Shown: positions 17,442-51,755 of the stretch, one piece after another
Numbering within the stretch: the first letter of the stretch is position 1
How the letters are laid out: each line of letters begins with the position of its first letter
Assembly: GCA_040776885.1 (NCBI GenBank)
Contig: JAXGZR010000004.1
Location: 240,320 to 304,319, forward strand
Direction: 5' to 3'
Length of the DNA: 64,000 nucleotides
DNA from: Desulfobulbus sp.
GTDB taxonomy: Bacteria > Desulfobacterota > Desulfobulbia > Desulfobulbales > Desulfobulbaceae
Notes under the pieces: model-generated
What the model saw: the letters and a program-made list of their open reading frames with translations, nothing else
What the model was told of the DNA's origin: nothing
The model's database searches: none
Translations under genes and position numbers: made by a program

Positions 17442-17479
17442 CAGAAGCCGGCAAGCTTTGACGAATCTTACCGGAGGAC

Positions 17480-18373: not shown

Positions 18374-18546
18374 ATGTTAAGCGCTAAGAGCCCTGTCGCG
18401 CTGCGGCCTTGTTGGCTGGTGCCGGGCAGTATGATGCACTGCATATCTTTATAACTCCGTATATATCAGCATATATTTGCATGGGCCACGGTCAAGTCGG
18501 CCAGGCTGCAACTCAGCAAAATTAAGCGATGCCGTCAACAGGGTAT

Positions 18547-18677
18547 TTCCAGTTCCAGGTGAAAGGCATGAGGTAAAAAGGCGAGAAATTTGCAAGACCT
18601 GTGCTGGTGTGCGTCTGCTCTCTTTGCAACAGGCAGCCCTTGGAAACGTAAAAAGGTTCTTTGCCCTGGAACTGGAA
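18547..18677. repeat. Perfect 13-bp inverted repeat TTCCAGTTCCAGG / CCTGGAACTGGAA, 105 bp apart
   Basis: Arms at 18547-18559 and 18665-18677 in a 570-bp intergenic gap. Confidence 0.6.
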
Positions 18678-18797
18678 TGCCTCCCATGGCTGCAGCCCTT
18701 TGGCTCGTTTTTCAGACCGTATGTTTTATTTCGCCTACCTTCCTAATTATCTGAAGCTCTTTCCATTTTTTTAATTGCTGCGGGCAGGTAAAAAAGC

Positions 18798-18850
18798 TTG
18801 ACAGAAGAATGCAGGTGTATCATGATGCTAATAATATTAGTCAAGTCTAA
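18798..18850 (+). promoter_or_regulatory. Sigma70-like promoter (TTGACA-17-CATGAT) followed by a second TTAG-N6-CTAA box
   Basis: TTGACA 18798-18803, CATGAT 18821-18826, TTAGTCAAGTCTAA 18837-18850 in AT-rich flanks. Confidence 0.55.
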
Positions 18851-18943
18851 ATAAATTAGCTCATCCTTTATCTTGGGCAGACAGGAAACAAAGAACAACC
18901 ATAAACAAGCAAAACAAAAACCACTGATGGAGGAGTTGTACTT

Positions 18944-19282
18944 ATGTGGCGAAGTAAGAAGTCAGCTGTCAAGAAACTGGGCTATGGGGCCTTGTTGTCG
19001 ATCTTTTTATGGGCCGGCCAGGCCTGGGCCCATACCCCCCTGTGCTCATGCTACGATAACGGTGACGGCAGCATAACCTGCGAAGGAGGTTATTCCGATG
19101 GCTCATCCGCAGCCGGCGTGAAGATGCGGGTTGAACAAGAGGATGGGGCTGTGCTGCAAGAAGGGCAGATGAATGCAACCAGCGAATTTACCTTTGATAA
19201 GCCGGCAGGTGCCTACAAGGTTGTATTTGACGGCGGCGAAGGCCACAGGATTGAAGTTAGCGGCAAGGATATTCTTGAATAA
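18944..19282 (+). CDS. Small exported protein (CbiL/NikL N-terminal-like, HTPLCSC motif)
   Basis: Signal peptide ending AWAH, HTPLCSCYDNGDGSITCEGGYSDGS, C-terminal GEGH; GGAGGAG RBS. Confidence 0.7.
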   Translation: MWRSKKSAVKKLGYGALLSIFLWAGQAWAHTPLCSCYDNGDGSITCEGGYSDGSSAAGVKMRVEQEDGAVLQEGQMNATSEFTFDKPAGAYKVVFDGGEGHRIEVSGKDILE

Positions 19283-19361
19283 GGCACGATGGTTTGTGCA
19301 GGACGCTCCATGCGCGGCTGTACAGGCAAGATGAATACAAGAGGACAAGAGGAGAAAGTAC

Positions 19362-20174
19362 ATGAAAAAGTTTGTGAGTGCCCTGGTCTGCCTGGCGTTC
19401 CTTGCGCCGGCCGCACCAGCATTGGCCCATTTTCAAATTATCTACACGCCGGAAATGGCCATGAAGGAGGGCGGGAAAATCGATTTGGCCCTGGTCTTTT
19501 CTCACCCCTTTGATGCCGGTCACACCATGGACATGGGCGAGCCGGAGCAATTTTTCGTTATTCGCAGCCGGGGTGAGAATCCGCCGCAGAAAACTGATTT
19601 GCTCAAAACGCTTAAACCCATCACCTGGGCCAGTCTGACCAATAGCGGCAAGGCCTGGGAGACCAACTATGCCGTCAGGGGGGGCGACTATATTTTTTGC
19701 CTGGTTCCCCAGCCCTACTATGAACCGGAAGAGGAGTCCTATATCAAGCAGAACACCAAGCTGATTGTCAATGTGGGCGGCGAGCCCGGAGCCTGGATGG
19801 AGCCGGTGGGCTTGCCTGCGGAAATTGTCCCCTTAAATAAACCGTATGACCGCTGGACCGGCAATGTGTTTCAAGGAAAGGTGCTTTTGCACGGCAAACC
19901 TGTAGCTGGCGCAGAAATTGAAATTGAATATCTGAACCACGAGCCCCTGCTCGACGAAAAGGCCTTTGCCAAAAAAGCGGCGGTGGCAGCGCCCCAGGAA
20001 GCCTTTGCCTTACAGACCATTTTTGCCGATGACAACGGCATCTTTACCTTTGGTATCCCCAAGGCCGGCTGGTGGGGCTTTGCCGCCCTGGATCTGGATC
20101 CTGCATACACCTATAAAGGCAAAAAATGCTCCCAAGATGCGGTCATCTGGATGAAGGCCGTTGATATGCAATAA
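19362..20174 (+). CDS. Periplasmic DUF4198-type protein, paralog 2
   Basis: ALAHFQ, FSHPF..GHTMDMG, PVGLPAEIVPL, FQGKVLLHGKPVAGAEIEIEY, GWWGFAAL. Confidence 0.85.
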   Translation: MKKFVSALVCLAFLAPAAPALAHFQIIYTPEMAMKEGGKIDLALVFSHPFDAGHTMDMGEPEQFFVIRSRGENPPQKTDLLKTLKPITWASLTNSGKAWETNYAVRGGDYIFCLVPQPYYEPEEESYIKQNTKLIVNVGGEPGAWMEPVGLPAEIVPLNKPYDRWTGNVFQGKVLLHGKPVAGAEIEIEYLNHEPLLDEKAFAKKAAVAAPQEAFALQTIFADDNGIFTFGIPKAGWWGFAALDLDPAYTYKGKKCSQDAVIWMKAVDMQ

Positions 20175-20373
20175 ATTTTTCAGCTCCTCCAGGAGGCGTC
20201 ACCGGGCATTTTCTCGCACTCACCTTTTGCCACCTGTGCCCGGTGGCGTATTTGTTCCCAACTCTTTACCAGAGGAATAGAAGCTATTACGCGGGGCTGC
20301 AAAGATACGCTTTGTGGTCCTTGCGCAGGTGAGAGGGATATTTTTTTATCAAATTTCATGAGGCTTGTGCACG

Positions 20374-20568
20374 ATGAGTTCTACCCTGCAAATCATCATT
20401 GTGGCCGCCATCGTAGCCGGTGCCGGCTGGTATTTGTACCGCCGCTTTAAACGCATGCTCGACCCAAACCAGCCTGCATGCGGTTGCGGCTGCGGGAAAA
20501 GCTGCGCGGCACAGCCCCCTGCTGAAGCAGAGGAAAATAAGGCCCACATTACGCCTGGGCACAACTAA
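20374..20568 (+). CDS. FeoB-associated Cys-rich small membrane protein
   Basis: Single TM (QIIIVAAIVAGAGWYLYRR) followed by ACGCGCGKSC. Confidence 0.85.
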   Translation: MSSTLQIIIVAAIVAGAGWYLYRRFKRMLDPNQPACGCGCGKSCAAQPPAEAEENKAHITPGHN

Positions 20569-20592
20569 ATTTTTTCAACAACGGAGGTAACG

Positions 20593-21375
20593 ATGCATCG
20601 GCTGATGAGCATTTTTGTCTTGGCGTTTTCCCTGGTCTTGCCCTGGCAGGCCTTTGCCCATGATTTTTGGGTGAATGCGTCCTACGAGGTCGCAACCCAG
20701 CAAGTTACTGCCCAAATTGGCTATGGTCATGGTTTCCCTGCTCCGGAAGCAATTGCTGCAGACCGGTTGCACATTTTCAAGCCGCTTCGCCTGCTGAGCA
20801 GTGAAGGCACCACCGAAATGCACCAAAAGGGAGAAAATTATGCCTATGAGCTGGCGGCAGCATTGGAAAAAGGCAGCTATCTTGTGCTGGGAGACTATAC
20901 ACCCACCTTCTGGTCCAAAAATGCAGCCGGCTGGAAACAGGCCAACCGTACCCAGATGCCGGACGCCAGCTATTGCGAAGAAGCGGTGATGAGTGCCAAA
21001 GCCATCTTGAATGTGGATGGCAGCATTGCTAGCGAACTGGTCACCCAAGCGGTCGGCCAGCCGCTCGAGATTGTCCCCCAGGTGGATCCCGCCACTGTAC
21101 AGCCCGGAGAAGTCTTTCCCGTACAAGTGCTGTATGAGGGGAAGCCCGTTAAAACCGCCGAACTGACGGCCACCTTCGAGGGATTTTCCGAAAAGGAAAG
21201 TAAGGTCTTTTATGGCCGAACTGACCTCAATGGCATGATTGACATTATTCCGCTCAAGGCGGGCTACTGGCTGGCCAAGGTACAGCACAAAGTTCCCTAT
21301 ACAGCAGATACCAAGGTGTGCGACGAGATTGTTGCGGTAGCCACCCTGAGCTTCCACATTGGGGAACAAAGGTAA
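20593..21375 (+). CDS. Periplasmic DUF4198-type protein, paralog 3
   Basis: AFAHDFWV, IGYGHGFP, GQPLEIVP, VQVLYEGKPV, GYWLAKVQH; ACGGAGG RBS. Confidence 0.85.
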   Translation: MHRLMSIFVLAFSLVLPWQAFAHDFWVNASYEVATQQVTAQIGYGHGFPAPEAIAADRLHIFKPLRLLSSEGTTEMHQKGENYAYELAAALEKGSYLVLGDYTPTFWSKNAAGWKQANRTQMPDASYCEEAVMSAKAILNVDGSIASELVTQAVGQPLEIVPQVDPATVQPGEVFPVQVLYEGKPVKTAELTATFEGFSEKESKVFYGRTDLNGMIDIIPLKAGYWLAKVQHKVPYTADTKVCDEIVAVATLSFHIGEQR

Positions 21376-21510
21376 AATTTATGCAGGAGTTGTCGGTTGG
21401 ACAAGTGGATGCTAGTCCTGTGGCCAGCATCCACTACAGGAAAAAGTGCTTGCCTGCGCAGCAAAACAACACGATCGCTGATCGACTGCTTTTTTGCTAC
21501 CAAACTGTGC

Positions 21511-26405: not shown

Positions 26406-27725
26406 TCAAAGGAGTTCTTGCGGGTTCTCGTCCGCCTCCGGCTCCAGCAGGCGGCTGGCCAGCACCTTGTCGATGCGGTTGCCGTCCAGATCCACCACTT
26501 CCAGCCGCCATCCCTCCCATTCAGTGATATCACCGGTATGGGGCACCCGGCCCACCAGCCACATTACCATGCCGCTGAGGGTATGGTAGCGGCCTTTTTC
26601 TTCCTCTGGCACGGTTTTCAAATCAAGCCGGTCTTTCAGCTCCGGAATGGGGATGAGTCCGTCCAATAGCCAGGAACCATCTGCACGCTGCACAGCCCAG
26701 ACATCTTCCGGGTCACGCGGCCTGAATTCGCCAGCCAAGGCCTCGAGCAGGTTCTGCAGGGTTACAAGGCCAAGAATTTCTCCATACTCGTCAACCACAA
26801 AAACCATCTGCACCCCTGATTCACGGAACTGCTCCAGGAGCTTCATGCCTGTGAGGGATTCCGGCACATAGACAGCGGGCTGCAGGTAATCGACGATCTT
26901 TTCCTGCGGTTCACCTTGCAAGTGCTGTTTCAATAACCGCTTGGCACTGATCACCCCCAAAACCGCATGCAGGCCGCCCTGGCAAACCGGAAAACGGGAA
27001 TGATCCGAGGCCGTGAGCTTATCCAGGCCTTCTTCAAGGGGTGCGTCCATATCCAGCCAGACAATATCGCTGCGTGGCGTCATCAGGGAGGCAATCTGAC
27101 GGTCATCAAGCCGGAACACATTGCGCACCATGTCGTGCTCGTGCTTTTCAATCACCCCCGCCTGCGAGCCTTCCACCAGAATGGCGTGGATGTCTTCTTC
27201 TGTCAGGTTGGCGCTGCTCAGCTCTTTTTTGCCCAAAAGACGCAAAAGGCCATCGGTGGACACGGTCAGCAGGGCAACAAAGGGGCGCGACAACTGCGCC
27301 AAAAACGCTATGGGCCGAGCCATCAGCCGCGCAATTCCTTCTGCGTTGAACTGGGCGATGCGCTTGGGTACCAGTTCCCCCACCACAATGGAAAAATAGG
27401 TGACAGTCACTACCACAAGGGTGGTTGCGCCGATGGCACTGATCCTCTCATCAACACCCCAACCGTAGAGCAGCCCAGCAAGAGGACCGGCAAGCGCGGC
27501 CTCGCCGACAATACCGTTGAGGATACCGATGGCAGTGATACCTATTTGGATTGTGGAAAGAAACTGGGTGGGCTCCTCACCAAGGTGGATGGCAACAGCG
27601 GCGGAGTGATCTCCATCTTCGGCCAGCTTTTGCAGGCGGCTTTTGCGGGCCGTAATCAGGGCGATTTCCGACATGGCAAAAATACCGTTAAGCACGATCA
27701 GGGCAACCAGTATGGCAAGTTCCAA
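26406..27725 (-). CDS. CNNM/HlyC-CorC family membrane protein (DUF21-CBS-CorC)
   Basis: LNGIFAMSEIA, FLSTIQIGIT, VVGELVPKRIA, HSRFPV, VVDEYG, WLLDG; TTG start with CAGGAG RBS. Confidence 0.9.
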   Translation of the reverse strand: MELAILVALIVLNGIFAMSEIALITARKSRLQKLAEDGDHSAAVAIHLGEEPTQFLSTIQIGITAIGILNGIVGEAALAGPLAGLLYGWGVDERISAIGATTLVVVTVTYFSIVVGELVPKRIAQFNAEGIARLMARPIAFLAQLSRPFVALLTVSTDGLLRLLGKKELSSANLTEEDIHAILVEGSQAGVIEKHEHDMVRNVFRLDDRQIASLMTPRSDIVWLDMDAPLEEGLDKLTASDHSRFPVCQGGLHAVLGVISAKRLLKQHLQGEPQEKIVDYLQPAVYVPESLTGMKLLEQFRESGVQMVFVVDEYGEILGLVTLQNLLEALAGEFRPRDPEDVWAVQRADGSWLLDGLIPIPELKDRLDLKTVPEEEKGRYHTLSGMVMWLVGRVPHTGDITEWEGWRLEVVDLDGNRIDKVLASRLLEPEADENPQELL

Positions 27726-32880: not shown

Positions 32881-34269
32881 ATGTCGGAGGTTGATCTCAA
32901 GGTCATGCTCACACGCAGTAGAAAAGAAAGATCTATTACCATTATCGGTGCTGGATTGGCAGGCTGCGAGGCAGCCTGGCAGGCGGCACAGCGGGGAGTG
33001 CAGGTTTTTTTGTACGAGATGAAGCCGCAGCGTTTCAGCCCGGCGCATGAAAATCCGAACCTGGCAGAACTGGTGTGTTCCAATTCCCTGCGGGCTGCGC
33101 GTATCGATTCGGCGGTGGGCTTGCTCAAGGAAGAGATGCGACGGCTGGGATCACTGATCATGCAGGCGGCAGATGCCACAGCTGTACCCGCAGGGAAGGC
33201 CCTGGCAGTGGATCGTAACCGCTTTGCCGCCTGGACCACCGAAAAGATCGAACAGCATCCAGCCATCACGGTGCGGCGCCAGGAGCTACATACTTTGCCT
33301 GCGGCAGAGGCACACCACCCCCTGATCGTCGCTGCTGGACCGCTGGCCAGCGCAGAGCTGGCCAGTGCGCTGCAACGCATCACCGGCACGGAACACCTGG
33401 CCTTTTACGACGCCATTGCCCCCATTGTTGCGGCCGAAAGTCTGGATATGCAGGTGCTGTACCGCAAGTCCCGTTGGGACGAAGAAACAGCCGGGGATTA
33501 TCTGAACTGTCCATTGAATCGGGAGCAGTATCAGCGCTTTGTTGCTGAGCTGGTTGCCGCCGAAAAGGTACCGCTCAAAAGTTTTGAAGAGGCGCGCTAT
33601 TTTGAAGGCTGCCTGCCAGTTGAAGTGATGGCACAGCGCGGTCCCGAGACCCTGCGTTTTGGTCCGCTCAAGCCGGTGGGTCTGGCCCACCCGCACAGCG
33701 GCGAGCGTTTTTATGCCGTGGTGCAGCTGCGGGCAGAAAATGCCGGACAAAGCGCCTATAACCTGGTGGGTTTGCAAACCAAACTCACCTACAGCGAGCA
33801 GAAGCGCGTCTTTCGTCTGCTGCCAGGGCTTGAGCAGGCAGAGTTTTTGCGGTTGGGCTCTATCCACCGTAACACCTTTGTCTGTGCGCCGGCTGTTTTG
33901 CAGGAAGATCTCAGCCTGCGCGTTGCTCCCCATATGTATGTTGCCGGGCAGTTGGCCGGAGTGGAAGGCTATGTGGAATCAGCCGCAGCTGGCCTTTTGG
34001 CCGGCATAAATGCCAGTCGCAAGGCCCTGGGGCAGGCCTTTTCAGCGCCACCTGCAGCAAGTGCCCATGCAGCACTGCTGCGCCATCTCAACCAGAGCGA
34101 TCCGGCCCATTTCCAGCCATCGAATATCAACTTCTCGCTCTTTGCCCCGCTTGCGGGCCGCATCCCCAAAAAACAGCGGGGCATCCTGCGGGCGCAAGCC
34201 GCGCTTGCCGCAGTGGATGCCTGGCGGCATCAATTGGTGGAAGAGGCAGATATCAAGGCATTTCAATAA
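32881..34269 (+). CDS. trmFO: Folate/FAD-dependent tRNA m5U54 methyltransferase
   Basis: IIGAGLAGCEAA, AELVCSNS, FYDAIAP, YLNCP, FEGCLPVE, GSIHRNTF, GQLAGVEGY. Confidence 0.95.
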   Translation: MSEVDLKVMLTRSRKERSITIIGAGLAGCEAAWQAAQRGVQVFLYEMKPQRFSPAHENPNLAELVCSNSLRAARIDSAVGLLKEEMRRLGSLIMQAADATAVPAGKALAVDRNRFAAWTTEKIEQHPAITVRRQELHTLPAAEAHHPLIVAAGPLASAELASALQRITGTEHLAFYDAIAPIVAAESLDMQVLYRKSRWDEETAGDYLNCPLNREQYQRFVAELVAAEKVPLKSFEEARYFEGCLPVEVMAQRGPETLRFGPLKPVGLAHPHSGERFYAVVQLRAENAGQSAYNLVGLQTKLTYSEQKRVFRLLPGLEQAEFLRLGSIHRNTFVCAPAVLQEDLSLRVAPHMYVAGQLAGVEGYVESAAAGLLAGINASRKALGQAFSAPPAASAHAALLRHLNQSDPAHFQPSNINFSLFAPLAGRIPKKQRGILRAQAALAAVDAWRHQLVEEADIKAFQ

Positions 34270-36070
34270 AGCCCCAAAAGGGATAGTCGAGCTGATACTC
34301 GGCCACCTTGCCCGGCGGATGTTCGCGGCTGGCCACCAGCCACAGCTCATTGATGCGGCGTTCCGGTGCCTGTTTGACAAAGGGATCCCACTGGGTACTC
34401 AACACCAGGGCATTGTCGGCGGAATAGCCGATATCCCCTGATCCCTTGAAGGAGCCCAGCTGTGGATGCTGTTCAAATTGGCCATCCTGACCGCGTTCCA
34501 GCTCGGAAATGACTAGGAAGCTGGCACCAAGCTCATCACGGATGGCCTCCAGCTGCCGCAGCCAGCCGTCGATACCGGAACGTTTCTGGCTGATATCCTT
34601 GAATGGTAGCTTGTGCAGGCTGTCGATCACCACCACCGTGTAGTCGGCCTTGGTCTCGTGACGGATGAAATCAATGTGACGGCGCATGATTTCCGGCGAG
34701 AGTTTACGGTCATTCACCACCCTAAGCCAGTGCAGGCTCTGCTCCAGTTGCTGGCTGGCCTGTGCCAACCGGGCCTGTTCTTCGCTGTGCAGCTGTTTGC
34801 TGCGAATCTGCTCTGTGCGCAGGCGACTTATGCGGCTCAAGATGCGCAGATAGATTTTCTGGCGGCTGTTTTCAAAATCATAGTAGATGACCGGAATACG
34901 GCGCAGGGCCATATTGGCGGCTGCCTGGATGAAGAAGGTGGATTTGCCTGCCTTGGGGGTGCCACCCAGGATATTGATACCATGGATGCCGCCGACTGCC
35001 GCATCGAGGCGCGCAAAGCCACTGTGCAGCTGTTGATAGGCACTGCTGCTTTCCTGGTGCAGGCGCTGGTTGAAGCGGTGAAATTCAAGTGCAGGGCTGG
35101 GAAAGGGGGAAAAGGCCCGGGCTGCGCGGATCATGGCGGCAACCCTTTGGGGCAGGGCTGTCGGGTCTTCGGCGGCCAGACTGGCCAGTTCCATGTTGCG
35201 TGGGGTATCCTCGGGCCAGTGGAGAATACGCACCTTGAAACCGATTCTGGTGGCAAAGGTGCGGGCCATGGCTGCAGACTCCACGTTGTGGCGCATCAGC
35301 AGAAAAATGGTACGCACCCAGCGCAGTCGCTCTGCCTCCAGCTCGTCGAGTAGCGCAGCATTGGGCACGGCTATGCCCGGAAAACCGAGCTGCTTGAGCA
35401 CCAGCAGGTTGCGCTCGCCCTCCACCACAAAAAGTGAGCCGTTTTCGCAACGGTCGATTTCCTCCACATTGAAAAACTGGAATGGGTTGTCAAAAAACGC
35501 CTCATTACCGTACCAGAAGCTGTCTTCCGACTTGTGGGGATGCACGCAGCGGGCAGCATAGCAGCTGCCGTTTGCCTGCACATACGGATAGAGGAGGTAA
35601 CGGCCATTGTAGCCGATTTGTAACTCCGCCAAGGTCTCTTCGAGGATACCTTCCTGCTGGAACTGTTGCTTGAGTTCCTGGGTGAGTTTGTTGGCAAAAC
35701 TAATGAGTTCTTGGTTCAGGTTGTTTGCTGGATAGTGCGTTTCCCAGCCAAAATATTCGCGATCCAGTTCAAAACCAGGCACTGTGGCCAGCGGTATGCC
35801 CAATGCGCGGGCAAAATGCAGGGGGAAGCCACCGGGAATGCAGCGTTTGCGGCAGCGGAAGTAGCCGTGGAAAAAACTCTCCGGATTCAGGAGAACAATT
35901 AAACCTGCTGTTTGCTGGCCGGAGAATTGATTGCCGCTTTGAGTGCTGCCTGTGGCCGTACAGAAGGGGCAAGGTGCCTGCAGGATGGTATTTTTTAAGC
36001 TGCCGCCCGGGAGATGCTGCAGATAGAAGCGGCTGATTGCATCGTTGCCAGAGTTGCCAGCGGCCGTCAT
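34253..36070 (-). CDS. T7 gp4/Twinkle-like Zn-finger + degenerate TOPRIM + DnaB-type helicase
   Basis: CPFC...CRKRC; LFVVEGERN; Walker A GTPKAGKST; YYDFEN; VIDSLH; LVISEL; KGSGDIGYSAD. Confidence 0.8.
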   Translation of the reverse strand: MTAAGNSGNDAISRFYLQHLPGGSLKNTILQAPCPFCTATGSTQSGNQFSGQQTAGLIVLLNPESFFHGYFRCRKRCIPGGFPLHFARALGIPLATVPGFELDREYFGWETHYPANNLNQELISFANKLTQELKQQFQQEGILEETLAELQIGYNGRYLLYPYVQANGSCYAARCVHPHKSEDSFWYGNEAFFDNPFQFFNVEEIDRCENGSLFVVEGERNLLVLKQLGFPGIAVPNAALLDELEAERLRWVRTIFLLMRHNVESAAMARTFATRIGFKVRILHWPEDTPRNMELASLAAEDPTALPQRVAAMIRAARAFSPFPSPALEFHRFNQRLHQESSSAYQQLHSGFARLDAAVGGIHGINILGGTPKAGKSTFFIQAAANMALRRIPVIYYDFENSRQKIYLRILSRISRLRTEQIRSKQLHSEEQARLAQASQQLEQSLHWLRVVNDRKLSPEIMRRHIDFIRHETKADYTVVVIDSLHKLPFKDISQKRSGIDGWLRQLEAIRDELGASFLVISELERGQDGQFEQHPQLGSFKGSGDIGYSADNALVLSTQWDPFVKQAPERRINELWLVASREHPPGKVAEYQLDYPFWGFIEMP

Positions 36071-36372: not shown

Positions 36373-38763
36373 ATGGCGCAGATGAAAAGCACAATGGCTG
36401 AACGGTTGGAAAGCCTTGGTCGAACAATTCATTCATTTTTTTGTGCCTATGATCAGTATGTTCTTGCCTGTACTGTTTTACTGTTTTGGTGTTTTATTTT
36501 TCAGGAATATTTTTTGTTTGGCAAGCTGTTTTTGTTTGAACAAACAGCCTGGGATACACTGGTACAGTGCTATCCAATAGAATATTTCCGTATAAACAAT
36601 GTAAAAAATTTTGTTTTTCCTTTTTGGTCTTTCCAGTTTGGCTTTGGGAAAAATATTTATCATGAGATGATAAATATAAGCCCCTTTGACGTTATTTATT
36701 TATTTTTTCAGGGGAAAAGTTATACAGAGGCAATTCCGACAGTATTTTTTTTACAATTCCTTGCTGCATCTCTTATATTTCAAGCATTTCTTAAAAAAAT
36801 CGGTTTATCTCCACTCGTTTCCTTTGTTGGTTCGATTTTATATTCCTTTAGCGGCTATATGGTATTGAATGCTCATTGGTACCATTACTTGAATTATCCG
36901 ATATTTGTAGCCTTATTCTTATTTTTCTTTGAAAAATGGTATAGAGATGGGTTTTGGTTTCCCCTGGTCGTCCTGGTGGGACTCGTTTCTTTAAAGAACG
37001 AACTGCATCTTTACCAAATGGCAACTTTCGGATTTTTTTACATTGTCTTTCGGTACATAAATGATTTTGGATTGAATAGACAAATTATTCGCCTATATAC
37101 TCGCTTAATGCTTCTTATTTTGTTTGGTTTGCTGCTGGGGGCATATTTTTATCTTCCAGATATGTATATCTTACTCTCTTCATCAAGAGTGCATGGCGCT
37201 GTACAGGGTGATTCCCTCTTGTCTCTTTTTCAGAAAATTCTGCATCCCATAGAATTCAACGCATTTTTAACTGTTCTTCTGCGTACCATATCTCCAGATC
37301 TGCTCAACTCTTGGCTCTTGTATCGAGGGTCTTTGAATTATCTTGAAGCATCTACGTTCTATGTAGGTCTTTTTCCCTTTGTGGTCTTTCTTTCTGTTTT
37401 CTTTGTTAAAAATAAAAAATATAAATTGCTGTGGATTTTCCCGGTTGTTTTTTGGATGGTCGTATTTTTTCCTTATTTTACCAGGGCGTTGAATCTGTTT
37501 GTCAGTAGTACTTTGAAATATATTTCTTTTTATTTGGGATTTTTTATCCTTTTTCCATTTTTATTGGTGATGGATTCATTGCGCGAGCAAGAACATCTGC
37601 AGCGATTAAACAGATTTTCCATATTTTTATTTTTGTTGGTCTTGTTGGGAATTTTGTTGGCATCGTTATGGTATCCTGATTTTTTCAACCCAATAAACAG
37701 AAAAGTTTTTCGCTTGTCTTTCTCTTTTTTCACTCTATATGTTGTTTGTCTCTCTATCTGGAACAGAGGAATCCATGTTGTTAGATATGGGTTGCTTGTT
37801 GTTGTCGTTATTGAAGCTGCAATTTTTGCAAGGATGACAGTGAGCACGGCTCCTGGAGCACTGTATCCGTTTTTCCATGAGCGTGGGGAAAAATATTTTC
37901 GTGAAGATACGCGCAAGGCAGTAGACTTTATTCGGGAAAGAGATCCTGGTTTTTTCAGGATAGAAAAAGACTACAGAGATGTGTATTTGAACGATGCTCT
38001 TGTGCAAAATTATTTTGGTACTGAGTCATATTTGGGTTTCATCAATACTGGTATGAAGGATTTTTATGATCAATTTAAGCTTTCAACAAATTCACCCAAT
38101 CTGAATTCCTACAGATATGGCCTGGAAAAGGAAGCAAGCCTGCAATCACTTCTGTTGGTCAAGTATTTTCTCTGTAAAGATGCGCAGTCCTGTGATGGCC
38201 TGCACGGCTTTTCTCTTGTGCATGTGGTCGATGGCCTCCGTATCTACCAGAACGACCATGTCCATCCCTTTGGCCAGGTCTTTCGCCGGCAAATCGGCCC
38301 GCAGTTTTTTCAGCAGCTTTCCCTTGCAGAAAAACTGGCACTTGTAGAGCATACGGTGGTCAGTTCTGCGGTGTTGCCAGGTATTCCCCAGTATGGTCAT
38401 GATGGCAGTGGTGGACATGACGAGCAAGCTGTCCCATCTGAACGAGGTGCAAACGACACCTTTACCCTTACGCATTGGGATCAACAGCATTTCGCGGGTT
38501 CTGTCGACCTGGATCAGCCTGGGGTCCTCTTTTTTCCCACACCTTTTGACCGTGGCTGGCGCGTTCAGGTCAATGACCAAGAGGCAGAGCTACTGCAGCT
38601 TGATTTTGGTTTTTCCGGAATTCTTCTCTCCAGCCCTGGGCAGTATACCGTTGAACTCCGTTATATTCCGCCCTTGCTGCGGACGGGTTTTGCGCTGACA
38701 ATCCTGTGTTTGCCCCTGGCGCTGTACCTACGCTGGCGTTATCCTACGTTTGCAGCCTACTGA
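36373..38763 (+). CDS. YfhO-like multi-TM (GT-C type) glycosyltransferase
   Basis: WSFQFGFG, GSILYSFSGY, many TM segments, DPGFFRIEK, PFDRGWRVQVNDQ, G..GILL..G.YTVELRY.PP C-terminus. Confidence 0.8.
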   Translation: MAQMKSTMAERLESLGRTIHSFFCAYDQYVLACTVLLFWCFIFQEYFLFGKLFLFEQTAWDTLVQCYPIEYFRINNVKNFVFPFWSFQFGFGKNIYHEMINISPFDVIYLFFQGKSYTEAIPTVFFLQFLAASLIFQAFLKKIGLSPLVSFVGSILYSFSGYMVLNAHWYHYLNYPIFVALFLFFFEKWYRDGFWFPLVVLVGLVSLKNELHLYQMATFGFFYIVFRYINDFGLNRQIIRLYTRLMLLILFGLLLGAYFYLPDMYILLSSSRVHGAVQGDSLLSLFQKILHPIEFNAFLTVLLRTISPDLLNSWLLYRGSLNYLEASTFYVGLFPFVVFLSVFFVKNKKYKLLWIFPVVFWMVVFFPYFTRALNLFVSSTLKYISFYLGFFILFPFLLVMDSLREQEHLQRLNRFSIFLFLLVLLGILLASLWYPDFFNPINRKVFRLSFSFFTLYVVCLSIWNRGIHVVRYGLLVVVVIEAAIFARMTVSTAPGALYPFFHERGEKYFREDTRKAVDFIRERDPGFFRIEKDYRDVYLNDALVQNYFGTESYLGFINTGMKDFYDQFKLSTNSPNLNSYRYGLEKEASLQSLLLVKYFLCKDAQSCDGLHGFSLVHVVDGLRIYQNDHVHPFGQVFRRQIGPQFFQQLSLAEKLALVEHTVVSSAVLPGIPQYGHDGSGGHDEQAVPSERGANDTFTLTHWDQQHFAGSVDLDQPGVLFFPTPFDRGWRVQVNDQEAELLQLDFGFSGILLSSPGQYTVELRYIPPLLRTGFALTILCLPLALYLRWRYPTFAAY

Positions 38764-38767
38764 AGCA

Positions 38768-39412
38768 TTATTTGTTGCCATCGGCTTTTTTGGCCCTGAT
38801 CCAGGCATTGATCCAGCTTTTCCCGATCAACAGAAAAAGTATTTCAAGGCCTACGCCCAAAAGGGCAAAAATCTTGAAGCCAAAAACCACATTGGGCCAG
38901 ATTCTCTCCTGCTTAGGTGTGCTCAGCGCTGGTTGGAATGCCAAGGCGATGTGTGGATCGCCTGCCTGTGGACTGCTCTGCATAAGCAGGCTCTCACCGT
39001 GCTGCTGGAGGGATGTTGTCTGGTATGTTGTAAACTGCGCTGCAGAAAAACTTGCTGCCAGCTGTGCGCCAAATGGCTCTAATATGGCCAGATTAGAGAT
39101 GCGTACCCTGCCGGGGCCGTCGAGGTAATCCAGGCGCAGGGCATGAATGGAGGAGGCTGGCAGATGTGCCTGGATAGCTTTGGGGATAGCCCTTTCCGGT
39201 AAAACCGCCCGGATACTCTCCTGTTCCCGGAATCCCTTGCCTGTGTCATAATAGATCTGCAGCACTGGCGGGCGGTTGCGGTTTTCTTCCACAGCGATGT
39301 CAAAGGAGACAATCAGCCTGGTGCTTGCCTGGTAACGGCCAGCCGCATGGGGTAGGGCAAAAAGGGCGGCCAGACAGAGGGAAACAAGCCATGAGTAGTT
39401 GCGCGGTTGCAT
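38768..39412 (-). CDS. Membrane-anchored protein with YYDTGxGFxExES beta-sandwich-like domain (214 aa)
   Basis: N- and C-terminal hydrophobic helices; LQIYYDTGKGFREQES, LRLDY; convergent with the YfhO-like gene, 4-bp gap. Confidence 0.65.
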   Translation of the reverse strand: MQPRNYSWLVSLCLAALFALPHAAGRYQASTRLIVSFDIAVEENRNRPPVLQIYYDTGKGFREQESIRAVLPERAIPKAIQAHLPASSIHALRLDYLDGPGRVRISNLAILEPFGAQLAASFSAAQFTTYQTTSLQQHGESLLMQSSPQAGDPHIALAFQPALSTPKQERIWPNVVFGFKIFALLGVGLEILFLLIGKSWINAWIRAKKADGNK

Positions 39413-39562: not shown

Positions 39563-41998
39563 ATGACAGCACCTGAGACCTACGAACAGCTGGATCTTTT
39601 TTATCTTGGCCGTGAGCTGGATCCCACAAGCGGCAAGGAGAGTGCCATTCCGCTGTTGGTGAAAAATCGGCACCTGACCACCCATGCCGCCATCATCGGC
39701 ATGACAGGTAGTGGTAAGACCGGGCTGGGCATTGCGCTCTTGGAAGAGGCTGCCATCGACGGTATTCCGGCCATTGTCATCGATCCCAAGGGCGATATGG
39801 GTAATCTTTTGCTCACTTTTCCAGATTTGGCTCCAACGGATTTCGAGCCCTGGGTTGATCCCGAAGCAGCGGCCCGTAAAAAAATGACGATACAGGAATG
39901 GGCCGCGCACACTGCCACCAGCTGGCAACAGGGTCTGACCAGTTGGGATCAGGATGGCAGCCGTATCCGCCGTCTGCGGGAGAGCGCCGATTTTGCCGTG
40001 TACAGTCCGGGTAGTTCCGCTGGTCGCATGGTATCCATTGTCGACAGCCTGGCGGCGCCACCTGCGGATGTGCTGGCTGATCAGGATATGCTTACGGAAC
40101 TGGTCAATGTTTCGGTTTCTTCCCTGCTGGGGCTGCTCGGTATCGAGGCCGATCCGATCAAGAGCCGGGAGCATGTGCTCCTGGCCACCATTTTACTCAA
40201 TGCCTGGGAAAGGGGAGAATCCCTGAATTTTGCCTCCCTGATTGGGGCGGTGGCGCAGCCGCCTTTTGCCCAAATTGGTGTTTTCCCGGTGGATGCCTTT
40301 TATCCTCCCAACAAGCGTATGGAGTTGGCCATGCAGTTCAATACACTGGTGGCGAGCCCCTCCTTCAACAACTGGATGCAGGGAGAGCCGTTGCAGATTG
40401 AAAATTTTCTGTACACCGCTAGCGGCAAACCGCGCATCAGTATTTTTTCCATTGCCCACCTCAGTGATGGGGAACGCATGTTTTTTGTCACCCTGCTGCT
40501 GGGCCGCTTGCTTGGCTGGATGCGGCGGCAGGAGGGCAGTACCGGCCTGCGCGCCATGTTGTATATGGACGAAATCTTTGGCTACTTTCCGCCAACAGCC
40601 AACCCACCCTCCAAAAAACCCATGCTGCTTTTGCTCAAGCAGGCGCGCGCCTTTGGCCTGGGGGTGGTGTTGTCCACGCAAAATCCGGTTGACCTGGATT
40701 ACAAAGGCCTGGCAAACATTGGCACCTGGTTTGTTGGTCGTCTGCAAACCAGGCAGGATCAAGATCGGGTGGTGGCCGGCATGGGCGGTGGCAGCGCCAA
40801 ATTTGATGCCAACAGGATCCGCAACCTGCTGGCCGGCCTTAAGGAGCGCTCGTTTCTTTTATATTCGGCCCACCGGAACGAACCAGTCCTGTTTACCACC
40901 CGCTGGGTGATGTCGTATCTTAAGGGCCCCATCTCCCTGGTCGAACTGGCCCGTTTGGCACCTGGCGCGGCACAGCCGGCCGCAGCCGAACAAACAGCAA
41001 CAACTCCTGTTGGAGCAAGCATGGATGGGACACTTTCCTTTAGCGCGGTCAGGCCGCCTCTTGCCGGCAGTATCATACAATACTATGTGCCCTCGCCCAT
41101 GCCAGCGGCAGAACAGCAGTACAGCGCCTCTCTTTTGGGGCTGGCTGCGGTGCGCAATGTGGATCAACGCAGGGGAATTGACCAAATTACGGAAATCCGC
41201 CTGCAAGTGGCCCTGCCCCAGGCCGGCGAAGGGGCAAGCTGGGAAAGGGCGCAGGCCTTTCCCATCACAGTTGAGCAGTTGCAGAGCGAGGCACCAGAGT
41301 CAGTACTTTTTGCCGATCTTCCGGCAGATATGAAGGTGCGTAAAAATTTCAACGACGAGGAAAAACGCCTGGCTGATCATCTTTACCGTACCCAATTGCT
41401 GCGTATTTTTCGGGTAAAGGAGCTGGGGCTGGAATCTGCACCAGAGGAGGCAGAGCAGGACTTCAGGCAGCGTATCGCCAGCGCGTTGGCAGCCAAAAAA
41501 GAAGCTGCCATCACCACCCTGGAGCAGGTCTATGGTAAAAAGCAGCAACAACTGCAAGATCGACTGCAACGGGCTGAGGCCAGGCTCGATAAGGAGCAAA
41601 GCGATGTGCGGGCCAAGGGCATGGAAACGGCCATCTCTGTTGGTTCGGCTATTCTGGGAGCCTTTTTGGGAAGAAAGGCGCTGAGCTCCACCACGGCCAA
41701 TAAATCGGTGCGGGGAGTACGCAATGCCGGCCAGTTGTTGAAGGAGCGGCAGGATGTGCAGTTGGCCCAGAATGAGGTGTCGCGCCTGGAGCAAGAGTTA
41801 CAAACCATGGTGGCCGAGTTGCAACAAAAGGTGCAGGAACTTAGCACTGGTTGGGATCCCGCCTTGGTCGAGCTTGAAACCGTGGCGATAGCACCCAGGA
41901 AAAGCGATATTTATGATGTTCGTGTCTGCCTGCTCTGGGAGCCAGTGCTGGATTTTTCGCCCAAGGAAGGCGCGCAGTTGCCGGTGCAGAGCGCCTGA
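39563..41998 (+). CDS. HerA-like (DUF87/DUF853-type) P-loop ATPase with C-terminal coiled coil
   Basis: THAAIIGMTGSGKT, VIDPKGD, YMDEIFG, KQARAFGLG..LSTQNPVDLDYK; GAGG RBS. Confidence 0.85.
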   Translation: MTAPETYEQLDLFYLGRELDPTSGKESAIPLLVKNRHLTTHAAIIGMTGSGKTGLGIALLEEAAIDGIPAIVIDPKGDMGNLLLTFPDLAPTDFEPWVDPEAAARKKMTIQEWAAHTATSWQQGLTSWDQDGSRIRRLRESADFAVYSPGSSAGRMVSIVDSLAAPPADVLADQDMLTELVNVSVSSLLGLLGIEADPIKSREHVLLATILLNAWERGESLNFASLIGAVAQPPFAQIGVFPVDAFYPPNKRMELAMQFNTLVASPSFNNWMQGEPLQIENFLYTASGKPRISIFSIAHLSDGERMFFVTLLLGRLLGWMRRQEGSTGLRAMLYMDEIFGYFPPTANPPSKKPMLLLLKQARAFGLGVVLSTQNPVDLDYKGLANIGTWFVGRLQTRQDQDRVVAGMGGGSAKFDANRIRNLLAGLKERSFLLYSAHRNEPVLFTTRWVMSYLKGPISLVELARLAPGAAQPAAAEQTATTPVGASMDGTLSFSAVRPPLAGSIIQYYVPSPMPAAEQQYSASLLGLAAVRNVDQRRGIDQITEIRLQVALPQAGEGASWERAQAFPITVEQLQSEAPESVLFADLPADMKVRKNFNDEEKRLADHLYRTQLLRIFRVKELGLESAPEEAEQDFRQRIASALAAKKEAAITTLEQVYGKKQQQLQDRLQRAEARLDKEQSDVRAKGMETAISVGSAILGAFLGRKALSSTTANKSVRGVRNAGQLLKERQDVQLAQNEVSRLEQELQTMVAELQQKVQELSTGWDPALVELETVAIAPRKSDIYDVRVCLLWEPVLDFSPKEGAQLPVQSA

Positions 41999-50313: not shown

Positions 50314-50429
50314 AAGTAGGGAGACGCAATGGGGCAGCGTGCATCCTTGCTGGAGCGTCTGCCGGAGAGCCTGCGCTCTGCGTTGGGCAGTTCCCTTATT
50401 ATCCTCAAGTTTGTCGTACCTTTTTATGT

Positions 50430-51755
50430 GGCTCCTCGTCATTTGGTGTGGATTTGGAGTATAAAGGGATCAAATCCACACCAAATGATGAGCAGTAGCA
50501 TGAACGGCAACGATATCATAGCATTGGGTCTGGGGCTGCAGACTCCTTGGGAGGTTACCGGGCAACTGCTCGACACATCCACAAGTCCGCATGAACTTCG
50601 GCTCACGATAGCTGCCGGGCGTGGTACGCTTTTCCCTTGTCCTGTATGCGGGAAGCTCTGTCAAGCCCATGATTTCAAGGAGATGACCTGGCGACATCTC
50701 AATTTCTTTCAGCACCATTGTTATATTACCGCCTCGGTTCCTCGTGTTCGCTGCCCAGAACATAAGGTCAAACAAGTCACGGTTCCCTGGGCGCGCAAAG
50801 GCAGCAGTTTCACCTTGCTGTTTGAGCAGGCCGCCATGCTCCTGGTCCGGGAAATGCCGGTCTTGACCACCGCAAAGCTCTTGGAAATGAATGACAAAAG
50901 ACTGTGGCGCATCGTGATGCATTATGTGAAGACCGCCATGAGCCGCCTGGATCTCAGTAGCCTGAAGGCATTCAGTCTTGATGAAACCAAATCCCGCAAG
51001 GGTCATCGGTATGTCACCGTCTTTATTGACCTTGACCGGGTCGATAAGCCGGTCGTTTTCGCGGTTGCCGGCAAAGGCAAACAGACCCTGGAATCATTCG
51101 AAAAACACCTGACCGCACACGGTGGCAAAGCCGAACAAGTCATCGAGGTGTCCGATATGTCTGCCGCCTTCATTGCCGGGGTGAGAGCCCACTTTCTCAA
51201 CAGTAGTCACACCGTTGACTGGTTTCATGTGGTGCAACTGTTCACCAAGGCGGTAGATGAGGTCCGACGCGCCGAGGCCAAGGAAACAGGGTTTCCCAAA
51301 GCCACCAGATGGGCGACCCTGAAAAATGCCGATGGTCCATTAACGGAGAAGCAGATCAATGCCTTGGCGGAACTGATGAGCATGGATATGCAGACCGTAA
51401 AGGCATGGCGTATCAAGGAGATGTTTCGCTGGGTGCGCAAGGCAACTTCGATGCGAGGCGCACAATGGCGATTGACCAATTTCATCAATGTTGCCTTGAA
51501 GCTGACTGCGGATATCGATCTGCTCAAACCAGTTCGCAAGGCTCTAAAAACAGTAGGGAAGCATCGGGAAGCCATCTTGGCGCGCTGGATATCAGGTCAC
51601 AACAATGCCAGGATCGAAGCACTCAATGGCATCTTCCAGGCAGCCAAATGCAGAGCTAGAGGATATAGAAACGATGACACGTTCGTCAGCATGATCTACC
51701 TGCTGGCTGCCCCGATACAATACTTGCTCAAATCCACTTGATTCGACGAAGAGCC
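50430..51755 (+). mobile_element. ISL3-family insertion sequence (1326 bp)
   Basis: Ends GGCTCCTCGTCATTTGGTGTGGATTTG and (rc) GGCTCTTCGTCGAATCAAGTGGATTTG (20/27); 8-bp target duplication TTTTATGT at 50422-50429 and 51756-51763. Confidence 0.95.
50500..51741 (+). CDS. ISL3 transposase
   Basis: CPVCG, WRHLNFFQH, VPRVRC, VPWARKGSSFT, LDET, DMS, DWFHVVQ, NARIEALN, ARGYRN. Confidence 0.92.
   Translation: MNGNDIIALGLGLQTPWEVTGQLLDTSTSPHELRLTIAAGRGTLFPCPVCGKLCQAHDFKEMTWRHLNFFQHHCYITASVPRVRCPEHKVKQVTVPWARKGSSFTLLFEQAAMLLVREMPVLTTAKLLEMNDKRLWRIVMHYVKTAMSRLDLSSLKAFSLDETKSRKGHRYVTVFIDLDRVDKPVVFAVAGKGKQTLESFEKHLTAHGGKAEQVIEVSDMSAAFIAGVRAHFLNSSHTVDWFHVVQLFTKAVDEVRRAEAKETGFPKATRWATLKNADGPLTEKQINALAELMSMDMQTVKAWRIKEMFRWVRKATSMRGAQWRLTNFINVALKLTADIDLLKPVRKALKTVGKHREAILARWISGHNNARIEALNGIFQAAKCRARGYRNDDTFVSMIYLLAAPIQYLLKST

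Follow-up and report, generated by a model that had tools for sequence, protein, structure and literature searches.

A gp4-like SF4 helicase with a degenerate primase site, carried on the chromosomes of Desulfobulbales

The primase-helicase gp4 of phage T7 (e.g., structures 1nui, 1q57, 5ikn, and 6n9w) is ordered as a zinc ribbon, an RNA-polymerase-like/TOPRIM primase domain, a linker, and an SF4 helicase domain. In the cellular system, the N-terminal collar of the helicase DnaB docks the primase DnaG, and to our knowledge DnaB is near-universal in bacteria. Similar modules are also found in non-replicative, non-catalytic DNA-handling roles: RadA, which is used in recombination, joins a DnaB-like ring ATPase to a C4 zinc finger, and RecR has a TOPRIM fold that works without nucleotidyl-transfer catalysis. 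Capture of a phage or mobile-element primase-helicase by a cellular lineage, followed by loss of primase catalysis, is so far, as far as we know, a textbook story for mitochondria only. The product of that capture, Twinkle, serves mtDNA as its only replicative helicase and has lost the zinc-finger cysteines. [quoted passage not shown]

The 64-kb stretch of Desulfobulbus sp. DNA analyzed here (the window) contains a gene at positions 34253 to 36070 of the minus strand that starts with ATG and encodes a 605-aa protein. An earlier note on this DNA had described it as a chromosomal helicase with the layout of gp4 and Twinkle and a catalytically dead primase domain. Based on its open reading frame, PHROG, and Foldseek matches, we assign the gene as a gp4-like primase-helicase homologue with a degenerate primase site. 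PHROG 239, annotated "DNA primase/helicase," spans aa 27 to 560 (E 5e-22). The AlphaFold2 model of the protein (mean pLDDT 88.4) finds its best Foldseek matches in T7 gp4 primase-helicase chains, with both the primase and the helicase covered (E 3e-21, TM as high as 0.73, about 490 to 500 aligned columns). Structures of Twinkle also rank high in this search, and in a viral structure library the model matches phage primase/helicases. The domain order is that of gp4, although sequence identity to gp4 is only 15 to 17%. Each motif string quoted in the earlier note was located in the protein where it was expected.

The homology of the N-terminal half emerges through intermediates. Taken alone, the N-terminal 340 aa gave no Pfam match, neither Toprim nor DNAG_N, and a family-only N-terminal profile found nothing significant among PDB sequences. 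Searched against 1.8 billion representatives, however, the N-terminal profile retrieved genuine Zn_ribbon_DnaG+Toprim_2+DnaB_C proteins (E 1e-22 to 6e-10), and a profile that includes primase-intact relatives matched the T7 gp4 primase 1nui (E 6e-13), Aquifex DnaG (9e-10), Twinkle (1e-8), and Escherichia coli DnaG (2e-8). The primase homology of the N terminus thus reaches significance only once the profile is bridged through relatives with an intact primase. Together with the Foldseek match to gp4, this result bears out the earlier proposal that the N terminus has a TOPRIM primase fold.

The zinc-binding domain comprises aa 10 to 100 (positions 35771 to 36043, minus strand, as are all features of this gene) and is defined by family cysteine counts, by four ribbon-typical beta strands in the AlphaFold2 model, and by Pfam Zn_ribbon_DnaG at the equivalent place in primase-intact relatives. 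Its Cys4 ligands are C34 and C37 in CPFC (aa 34 to 37; nt 35960 to 35971) and C73 and C77 in CRKRC (aa 73 to 77; nt 35840 to 35854), all four of which are kept in at least 126 of 127 family members; between them, aa 41 to 53 form a variable loop of low model confidence. Alignment to gp4 1nui and conservation counts place the N-terminal subdomain of the RNA-polymerase-like primase domain at aa 101 to 205 (35456 to 35770). This subdomain includes the NGRYLxYPY and CYAARC motifs and the segment GILEETLAELQIGY..LLYPY..NG (aa 141 to 168). A TOPRIM fold follows at aa 206 to 300 (35171 to 35455), with a metal site that residue maps, family counts, and dN/dS mark as degenerate. The linker between the primase-like and helicase domains (aa 301 to 345; 35036 to 35170), drawn from the alignment and from model helices at 303 to 316 and 326 to 341, carries a conserved ARAFSPF motif.

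The SF4 DnaB/gp4-type helicase domain occupies aa 346 to 605 (34256 to 35035) and is recognized by Pfam DnaB_C (aa 348 to 560, E 4e-26), by solved DnaB helicases (E about 1e-13), and by motif counts. Its motifs are Walker A GGTPKAGKST (aa 369 to 378; nt 34937 to 34966), H1a YYDFEN (aa 396 to 401; nt 34868 to 34885), Walker B VVVIDSLHK (nt 34610 to 34636; VIDSL at aa 481 to 485), H3 VISELER (nt 34493 to 34513), and H4 FKGSGDIGYSAD (nt 34415 to 34450; FKGSGDI at aa 541 to 547). Motif residues of H1, H1a, H2, H3, and H4 are invariant in all 127 members, as are the strings GTPKAGKS, DFEN, VIDSLHK, SELER, and FKGSGD. The motor has Lys376 in Walker A, Glu400 as the catalytic residue, Asp483 in Walker B, and Lys542 at the position of the arginine finger. 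By its motifs, then, the helicase motor is complete, as the earlier note had held for the DnaB/gp4 helicase, and the protein is predicted to be a ring-forming, ATP-driven SF4 helicase that assembles as a hexamer.

Two residues of this motor depart from DnaB or gp4: the Gln of H3 in DnaB is Glu in the 605-aa protein, and the arginine finger is Lys. These changes could instead fit a RecA/KaiC/RadA-like ATPase that acts in strand exchange, branch migration, or signaling and does not unwind DNA, with the N-terminal half as a DNA-recognition module. Many members carry the JGI name "KaiC/GvpD/RAD55 family RecA-like ATPase," there are weak matches to NCBIfam RadA/Sms (E 2e-8) and to a UvsX-like PHROG, and RadA likewise joins a C4 zinc finger to a DnaB-like ring. 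However, the best sequence and structure matches over the entire domain are DnaB/gp4 helicases, and the same Glu and Lys occur in the primase-intact relatives, themselves presumably functional as replicative helicases. The RadA/Sms model TIGR00416 matches only partially (33 bits against a cutoff of 403), and the protein has neither the Lon-like domain nor the KNRFG motif of RadA/Sms. We regard a non-unwinding ATPase as quite improbable. We also detected no similarity to RecR.

The reference for the TOPRIM fold is the set of six acidic residues in the primase site of gp4 (E157, E159, D161, D207, D209, and D237), and four of the six are replaced in the 605-aa protein. The equivalents of E157 and E159, E217 and E219, are invariant across the family, whereas the equivalents of D161, D207, D209, and D237 are lost in 126 to 127 of the 127 members. 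In motif IV (VVEGERNLL, aa 215 to 223; nt 35402 to 35428), N221 replaces D161, as it does in 126/127 members. In motif V (FLLMRHNVESA, nt 35273 to 35305, with LMRHNVES at aa 258 to 265), R260 and N262 replace D207 and D209; elsewhere in the family the first of these positions is Asn, Gly, or Arg and also Ser or Lys, and the second is Asn, Thr, or Ser. E264 and S265 of the same motif are present in 124 and 122 of the 127 members, respectively. The motif VI region, PEDTPRNMELA (nt 35183 to 35215, with RNMEL at aa 291 to 295), stands where KDAND is expected; KDAND itself is gone, and the region is without any conservation across the 127 members. The canonical EGxxD and DxD motifs of DnaG are accordingly degenerate in the family. 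The replacements that the earlier note had read in this one sequence therefore hold residue by residue against both gp4 and primase-intact relatives, and the loss of the canonical aspartates extends throughout the family.

Other parts of the primase-like domain are retained. R174, present in 117/127 members, corresponds to gp4 K122; K180 (Arg in the family consensus, Arg or Lys in 119/127) corresponds to K128; and R191 of the family consensus corresponds to K137. An acidic cluster, E182/D183/D189/E190 within PEDxFWYGDE, is conserved in and specific to the degenerate family; primase-intact relatives are Lys-rich at this place. Purifying selection acts on the degenerate primase domain as strongly as on the helicase: dN/dS is 0.03 to 0.26 over N-terminal segments (0.03 to 0.18 for TOPRIM) versus 0.06 to 0.13 for the helicase. 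The domain therefore still does something.

One candidate for that function is primer synthesis itself. Given the retained E217, E219, and E264 and the new acidic cluster, an altered metal site is conceivable, and the protein could still be bifunctional, with a site remodeled from E217/E219/E264 and E182/D183/D189/E190 and with Asn221, Asn260, and Asn262 in a second shell. Near-invariance of the replacing residues (N221, E264, and S265), the family-specific PEDxFWYGDE, the retained zinc finger and basic NTP/DNA-contact residues, and the strong selection over the whole domain are consistent with this idea. On the other hand, gp4, DnaG, and all of the intact relatives have canonical EGExD, DxD, and final Asp motifs, and in published mutagenesis of DnaG and gp4, changing these Asp residues abolishes primer synthesis. 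Moreover, position 260 varies among N, G, R, S, and K, position 262 is N, T, or S, and motif VI is not conserved; such variability at 260 and 262 is thus unlike that of metal ligands. We consider a bifunctional enzyme unlikely, and primer synthesis by the 605-aa protein has probably been lost; as judged from its sequence, the primase site may well be "catalytically dead."

The closest relatives outside the family (clusters P0174/P0253/P0254, P0161/P0257, and P0164/P0147) share 27 to 29% identity with it over their full length. The primase-intact relatives are rare, amounting to a handful of clusters, and reside in integrative elements, beside genes for an integrase or serine recombinase, for MCM, and for PolA. 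They have in common with the degenerate family FPY, FN, PVIYYDFENG, IDSLxKLP, ISELxR, FKESGDIEY, and a C-terminal YPYWxFxE, but their EGEKD, FDNDxxG, and DINDLY motifs are canonical and their zinc finger is of the CHC2 type. In a neighbor-joining tree, the degenerate family forms a single clade that is sister to the primase-intact mobile-element clade, and basal family members (P0131) keep some of the Asp residues. The proposed phage-type origin is therefore supported in the sense that the sister clade consists of integrative-element primase-helicases.

The gene itself has a different setting. We found relatives in 443 species genomes, the top 80 of which all belong to Desulfobulbales. The gene order argC-truA-maf-[DUF87]-gene-trmFO is conserved in Desulfobulbales, whose families share the chromosomal slot between maf/DUF87 and trmFO. 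In the window, the convergent neighbor trmFO (GIDA family; 32881 to 34269, plus strand) overlaps the 3' end of the gene by 17 nt; this partner is adjacent in most Desulfobulbaceae and Desulfocapsaceae loci. The divergent upstream neighbor is a DUF87 (HerA/FtsK-like) ATPase (39563 to 41998, plus strand), separated from the helicase gene in the window by a low-GC insertion and found as a neighbor in at least 17 related genomes. An obligate coupling to DUF87 can be rejected: of the roughly 45 loci whose flanks are long enough, about 17 have the two side by side, and the adjacency is absent in Desulfobulbus sensu stricto and cable bacteria. The gene is single copy and order-wide, and its divergence is similar to that of the neighboring trmFO, truA, and argC, i.e., it evolves at a core-gene rate. 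The neighbors trmFO, maf, truA, and era are uninformative on DNA repair or restart.

On the regulatory side, a promoter-like TTGAAY-N17-TTCAATA lies upstream of the gene in a subset of Desulfobulbus loci and is absent from the window. No other shared upstream site, such as an SOS box, was found across the loci searched, and a scan for consensus promoters and terminators was uninformative. Metatranscriptome runs contain only a few low-depth contigs with the gene, weak evidence of expression for which DNA carry-over is possible.

We considered whether the gene belongs to a mobile element, as a remnant or as a working part, or serves in defense against phages or plasmids, rather than being a domesticated housekeeping gene. 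Its nearest intact relatives do reside in integrative elements, a HerA-like ATPase often adjoins it, and PADLOC gives weak matches. However, no recombinase, phage, integrase, or defense genes lie within 10 kb on either side, as the earlier note had remarked for phage and integrase genes, and the GC content of the gene region is host-like (57% versus about 52 to 58% over most of the window). Searches of 2.9 million viral contigs, 50,697 phage records, and 72,556 plasmids turned up no member, and the chromosomal position is constant across the families of the order. The PADLOC 2.0 matches (mad8, E 7e-4; DRT primase-like model, E 0.017) are insignificant, partial, and limited to the P-loop region, and a defense assignment was rejected; for the DUF87 neighbor, which many lineages lack, PADLOC gave no credible defense assignment. 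The uniform presence and synteny of the gene therefore refute a mobile or defense identity, to which we give a very low probability. Synteny, order-wide spread, and absence from the viral, phage, and plasmid collections searched instead agree with a chromosomal, vertically inherited gene of free-living bacteria, in contrast to the phage gene for gp4, and with the chromosomal, host-like character described in the earlier note.

A single-copy, order-wide gene evolving at a core-gene rate could also encode the main replicative helicase of Desulfobulbales, with DnaB displaced and DnaG recruited in a noncanonical way, and some JGI records do name members "replicative DNA helicase." Like DnaB, the protein has a RecA-like SF4 domain, with its motifs, at the C terminus, but a primase-like domain stands where DnaB has its N-terminal collar. 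It scores 82 bits against the NCBIfam DnaB equivalog TIGR00665, far under the cutoff of 385, and no Pfam match to the DnaB N-terminal helical domain PF00772 lies N-terminal to aa 348; the protein is therefore without the canonical DnaG-docking collar. Nor does it have the C-terminal DnaB-binding domain of DnaG, as its C terminus is the helicase domain. Searches by tblastn and Pfam-labeled contexts found no dnaB or dnaG paralogue in the window or in retrieved loci totaling about 1 Mb, a result that is uninformative for the rest of the genome. The near-universality of DnaB speaks against its displacement. In addition, the gene for the dedicated DnaB operator, dciA, is recorded in Desulfobulbus propionicus, Desulfotalea psychrophila, and Desulfurivibrio alkaliphilus (PMC5109545, Supplementary Data 1), which points indirectly to a canonical DnaB pathway in the order. 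We judge displacement of DnaB to be highly improbable. An accessory fork helicase, rather than the main replicative one, is the most likely role, although this is a weaker inference than those concerning the motor and the primase site.

Taken together, these observations make it reasonably likely that the 605-aa protein is a domesticated, mobile-element-derived SF4 helicase with a dead primase site and an accessory role at the fork beside DnaB and DnaG. The gene would have been captured from an integrative-element replication module at or near the base of Desulfobulbales and thereafter inherited vertically as a single-copy, housekeeping-type gene. Its N-terminal half keeps the DnaG/gp4 primase fold and has lost four of the six metal-binding acidic residues; primer synthesis would have disappeared, while the zinc finger and the basic residues, which contact nucleic acid or NTP in gp4, are retained. 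The cellular role may lie in, e.g., replication restart or recombinational repair.

This history resembles that of Twinkle in that a gp4-type helicase was fixed in a cellular lineage with its primase-like domain kept and, as the residues here suggest, non-catalytic. Sequence matches to Twinkle are weak (E 8e-4 with the single sequence, 1e-8 with a profile), and orthology with eukaryotic Twinkle is ruled out by nearest relatives that are bacterial mobile-element proteins. Because the sister group is the bacterial mobile-element clade, the degeneration is independent of Twinkle. The parallel drawn in the earlier note thus stands for the kept domain and the probable loss of primase catalysis but not for the route of degeneration: the degenerate family keeps the Cys4 set and basic residues and has lost Asp residues, whereas Twinkle lost the zinc-finger cysteines and, in a non-significant alignment (E 0.57), appears to keep more of the TOPRIM Asp residues. 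The 605-aa protein also probably coexists with DnaB, whereas Twinkle works alone on mtDNA.

A bolder proposal, which we put forward tentatively and hold to be possible rather than probable, is that Desulfobulbales, the cable bacteria among them, depend for chromosome maintenance on a second, phage-derived ring helicase that loads itself. The zinc finger and dead-primase collar would then serve as an ssDNA reader, specific for sequence or structure, that chooses the loading site, e.g., stalled forks or a specific site; in the extreme form, the protein would replace DnaB at the fork. If true, the gp4-to-Twinkle transition would have its first counterpart in bacteria.

We found no curated family model (Pfam or NCBIfam) or paper describing the degenerate family, and nothing relevant in the literature on bacterial Twinkle-like proteins or inactive TOPRIM primases; a paper on the cell cycle of cable bacteria does not mention helicases. 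The family looks like an independent bacterial case of primase-helicase capture and primase loss, fixed across a whole order of environmentally important sulfate reducers that includes the cable bacteria. With selection acting on the domain and with intact relatives and partly degenerate basal members at hand, it is therefore a tractable system. It opens the questions of what use a "dead" primase domain is to a ring helicase, how replication proteins of mobile elements become domesticated, and whether bacteria can depend on another SF4 helicase in addition to DnaB.

The gene at 34253..36070 on the minus strand of the window is an ATG-started open reading frame of 605 amino acids (aa), within which every motif string quoted in the earlier note was located at its expected site: CPFC at aa 34-37, CRKRC at aa 73-77, the GILEETLAELQIGY..LLYPY..NG segment at aa 141-168, VVEGERNLL at aa 215-223, LMRHNVES at aa 258-265, RNMEL at aa 291-295, GGTPKAGKST at aa 369-378, YYDFEN at aa 396-401, VIDSL at aa 481-485, and FKGSGDI at aa 541-547. 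The overlap claimed at its 3' end is 17 nt long and involves convergent trmFO (GIDA family, 32881..34269). By sequence comparison, the C-terminal domain is beyond doubt the DnaB/gp4-type helicase previously proposed, with matches to Pfam DnaB_C at aa 348-560 (E 4e-26) and to solved DnaB structures (E ~1e-13). The motif residues K376, S377, D398, E400, D483, S522, E523, R526, K542, and D546 are invariant across 127 full-length members of the family. DnaB has a Gln in motif H3 and an Arg finger, whereas this protein has Glu and Lys at those positions; because both substitutions are also present in primase-intact relatives from a mobile element, we do not consider them signs of decay.

The N-terminal 340 aa searched alone gave zero Pfam matches, and a profile of close family members only gave no significant match in the PDB. 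PHROG 239 ("DNA primase/helicase"), however, spans aa 27 to 560 (E 5e-22). An exhaustive search of 1.8 billion representative proteins with an N-terminus profile returned 114 matches in all, the remoter of which (P0147, P0161, P0164, and P0174; E 1e-22 to 6e-10) have a bona fide Zn_ribbon_DnaG + Toprim_2 + DnaB_C architecture. When the family was widened by these primase-intact relatives, the resulting profile matched T7 gp4 primase (1nui, 6e-13), Aquifex DnaG (2au3, 9e-10), Twinkle (8e2l, 1e-8), and E. coli DnaG (1dd9, 2e-8). PHROG 239, the N-terminus profile, and the widened-profile PDB matches together establish, by homology, the N-terminal half as a primase domain. A 30-sequence alignment gave a confident AlphaFold2 model (mean pLDDT 88.4), in which only aa 1-8 and 41-53 fall below 50. 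Its top PDB matches were T7 gp4 primase-helicase chains (E 3e-21, ~490-500 aligned columns, TM up to 0.73 when normalised on gp4), followed by DnaB and human Twinkle, and its top matches in a viral structure library were full-length phage primase/helicases. The gp4/Twinkle layout read from the sequence in the earlier note thus agrees with the domain model, the profile, and the predicted structure.

We then mapped the gp4 primase site onto the protein through a HMMER alignment and counted residues over the 127 full-length members. Two of the acidic positions are kept: gp4 E157 corresponds to E217 (E in 125/127) and E159 to E219 (E in all 127). At the remaining positions, gp4 D161 is replaced by N221 (N in 126 of 127 members), D207 by R260 (N in 90, G in 18, and R in 9 members, and never D), and D209 by N262 (N in 79, T in 29, S in 18, and D in 1), and the KD237AN motif falls in the region of RNMEL (aa 291-295), where the motif VI positions have no conservation among the members. 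Four of the six primase acidic residues of gp4 are therefore lost. In these columns the primase-intact relatives still have the canonical motifs EGEKD, FDNDxxG, and DINDLY. The TOPRIM replacements described earlier hold up against gp4, against these relatives, and across the family. The protein has the layout of a gp4-type primase-helicase but lacks the intact primase catalytic site that defines this type.

Other features of the N-terminal half are retained. At least 126 of the 127 members have the four zinc-ligand cysteines. Of the basic gp4 residues, K122 has its equivalent (R174) in 117 and K128 (R/K180) in 119 of the 127; K137 is matched by R191 in most members, with Ala at 191 in the window. 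E264 and S265, directly after the former DxD motif, are nearly invariant, and an acidic cluster at aa 181-190 (consensus PEDxFWYGDE) is conserved and specific to the degenerate family. Mean identity to the window protein is 0.63 in the TOPRIM segment, 0.56 in the RNA-polymerase-like subdomain, 0.52 in the zinc domain, and 0.73 in the helicase. Pairwise Nei-Gojobori dN/dS values for seven pairs ranged from 0.07 to 0.26 in aa 10-300, from 0.03 to 0.18 in the TOPRIM segment, and from 0.06 to 0.13 in the helicase. Purifying selection therefore acts on the primase-like half at a strength comparable to that on the motor. The degenerate primase-like domain is not decaying.

The primase-intact relatives bear on the origin of the family. 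They are a small group, with 36 matches among 5.8 billion clusters (one match carries the name of a Bdellovibrionota bacterium), and in two independent contigs they lie inside an integrative element (L084 1-21695 and L097 1-14611) that encodes a tyrosine integrase or serine recombinases, an MCM-family helicase, the primase-helicase, a family-A DNA polymerase, PD-(D/E)XK proteins, and HTH regulators. This is a self-replicating mobile element carrying two different helicases; elements with the intact primase-helicase come from a Bdellovibrionota genome and from metagenomes. In a simple distance (neighbour-joining) tree, the degenerate family forms one clade, sister to the primase-intact proteins, that comprises Desulfobulbales and three outliers (P0124, P0126, and P0131). 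Degeneration is partial in the basal members of this clade. P0131 has EGEEN, RND, and YDL motifs in a chromosomal context of ETF/TRAP-transporter genes, and P0124 keeps maf/cNMP-PilZ synteny. The pattern fits a history in which a mobile element's replication gene was captured once and then lost its Asp ligands step by step.

Within its present hosts the gene behaves as a chromosomal one. Matching protein clusters number more than 1,000. The top 120 are full-length with 56-95% identity, and those that carry an organism name come from Desulfobulbus or Desulfobulbaceae. Relatives are encoded in 443 stretches (one genome per GTDB species); the best 80 of these are all from Desulfobulbales, including Desulfobulbus, Desulfocapsaceae, Desulfogranum, and the cable bacteria Ca. 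Electrothrix and Ca. Electronema. Across Desulfobulbaceae and Desulfocapsaceae the same arrangement, argC-truA-maf-(DUF87 ATPase, divergent)-gene-trmFO (convergent), is found repeatedly, and the gene diverges in step with its neighbours (55-66%, against 59-67% for trmFO, 51-67% for truA, and 64-79% for argC). Cable bacteria have a different context: in the one cable-bacterium-type context examined, the gene follows the era GTPase gene. In line with the earlier note, zero recombinase or phage genes lie within 10 kb on either side in the window. Nor are homologues confined to prophages: no family member was found in 2.9 million viral contigs (distant helicase-only matches at 20-28% alone), 50,697 phage records, or 72,556 plasmids.

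Several observations concern the surrounding DNA. In the window, transposase genes of the ISL3 family at 50329-51741 (+) and the IS1595 family at 56369-57289 (-), 14-20 kb from the helicase gene, were the only mobile-element genes seen. The DUF87 (HerA/FtsK-like) ATPase at 39563-41998 (+) has 811 aa, a long C-terminal coiled-coil-like tail, and only weak matches to HerA, mad8, and TraD models. Its gene lies next to the helicase gene, divergently, in 17 or more related genomes, but Desulfobulbus sensu stricto and cable bacteria lack it there. In the window, the two are separated by a YfhO-family membrane protein gene at 36373-38763 (+), beside a small ORF at 38768-39412 (-). This gene has a GC content of 38.5% versus ~55% around it, occurs among the fetched loci only in same-strain contigs, and looks like a recent horizontal insertion. 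A promoter-like TTGAAY-N17-TTCAATA lies ~40-90 nt 5' of the gene start (start ~8001/3217) in several Desulfobulbus genomes (loci L005, L006, and L010) and is missing upstream of the window copy, where the YfhO insertion replaced the upstream region. The CNNM/CorC gene (~26406-27725), intact in the window, is interrupted in a same-strain contig from another sample by an IS3-family transposase pair (HTH_Tnp_1 + rve; L083 12013-14590/L099 19920-22497), a strain-level insertion polymorphism. The stretch 14922-21400 (+) contains an expanded metal-uptake cluster, in which feoB precedes three DUF4198 paralogues and a FeoB-associated small protein; a PccH-like gene lies close by.

DnaB, DnaG, RadA, and a Twinkle orthologue were each considered as identities and rejected. 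The DnaB N-terminal domain is absent (Pfam) and the DnaB equivalog model scores 82 bits against a cut-off of 385, so the protein is not an orthologous DnaB. The N-terminal collar of DnaB docks DnaG, and without that domain the protein lacks the canonical DnaG-docking collar. One gene each for DciA, the DnaB operator, is listed in Desulfobulbus propionicus DSM 2032, Desulfotalea psychrophila, and Desulfurivibrio alkaliphilus (Brezellec et al. 2016, Supplementary Data 1, PMC5109545). Because dciA is listed in these three genomes, which hints indirectly at a DnaB pathway, and the protein is not an orthologous DnaB, we tentatively favour an accessory helicase that would work alongside DnaB and DnaG, with a task in chromosome maintenance such as restart or recombinational repair; that it has replaced DnaB seems less likely. 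A defence role was unsupported by PADLOC matches or gene neighbours. A few low-depth contigs in metatranscriptome runs are the only hint of expression.

The protein has the fold and motifs of an SF4 ring helicase and keeps the zinc finger and basic cleft residues. It would hydrolyse NTP at subunit interfaces, with K376, E400, and D483 acting in cis and K542 in trans, and by analogy with gp4 and DnaB would move 5'-3' along ssDNA. With its metal ligands lost, the N-terminal half probably no longer primes; it may instead serve as an ssDNA-binding and loading collar. Human Twinkle is the precedent: its N-terminal domain has no primase activity in vitro, yet replisome processivity, helicase activity, and efficient binding to ssDNA all depend on it (PMC2241861). 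Twinkle proteins from outside the metazoa still have primase activity, which metazoan ones have lost (PMC6299598). The parallel to Twinkle drawn in the earlier note would lie in a retained primase-like domain that has probably lost catalysis, but the route differs. Twinkle is reported to have lost its zinc-finger cysteines, whereas the degenerate family keeps Cys4 and has lost the Asp residues.

Pfam and NCBIfam have no model for the N-terminal domain or the family, whose members are named "DnaB-like helicase C-terminal domain-containing protein", "AAA family ATPase", or "KaiC/GvpD/RAD55 family ATPase" in databases, and literature searches for the degenerate family found nothing. Our results support the overall interpretation of a domesticated phage-type helicase, with catalytic death, biological role, and coexistence with dnaB and dnaG as its putative elements. 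The family is a domesticated bacterial helicase of the gp4-like kind, present throughout the order, probably primase-dead, and convergent on metazoan Twinkle.
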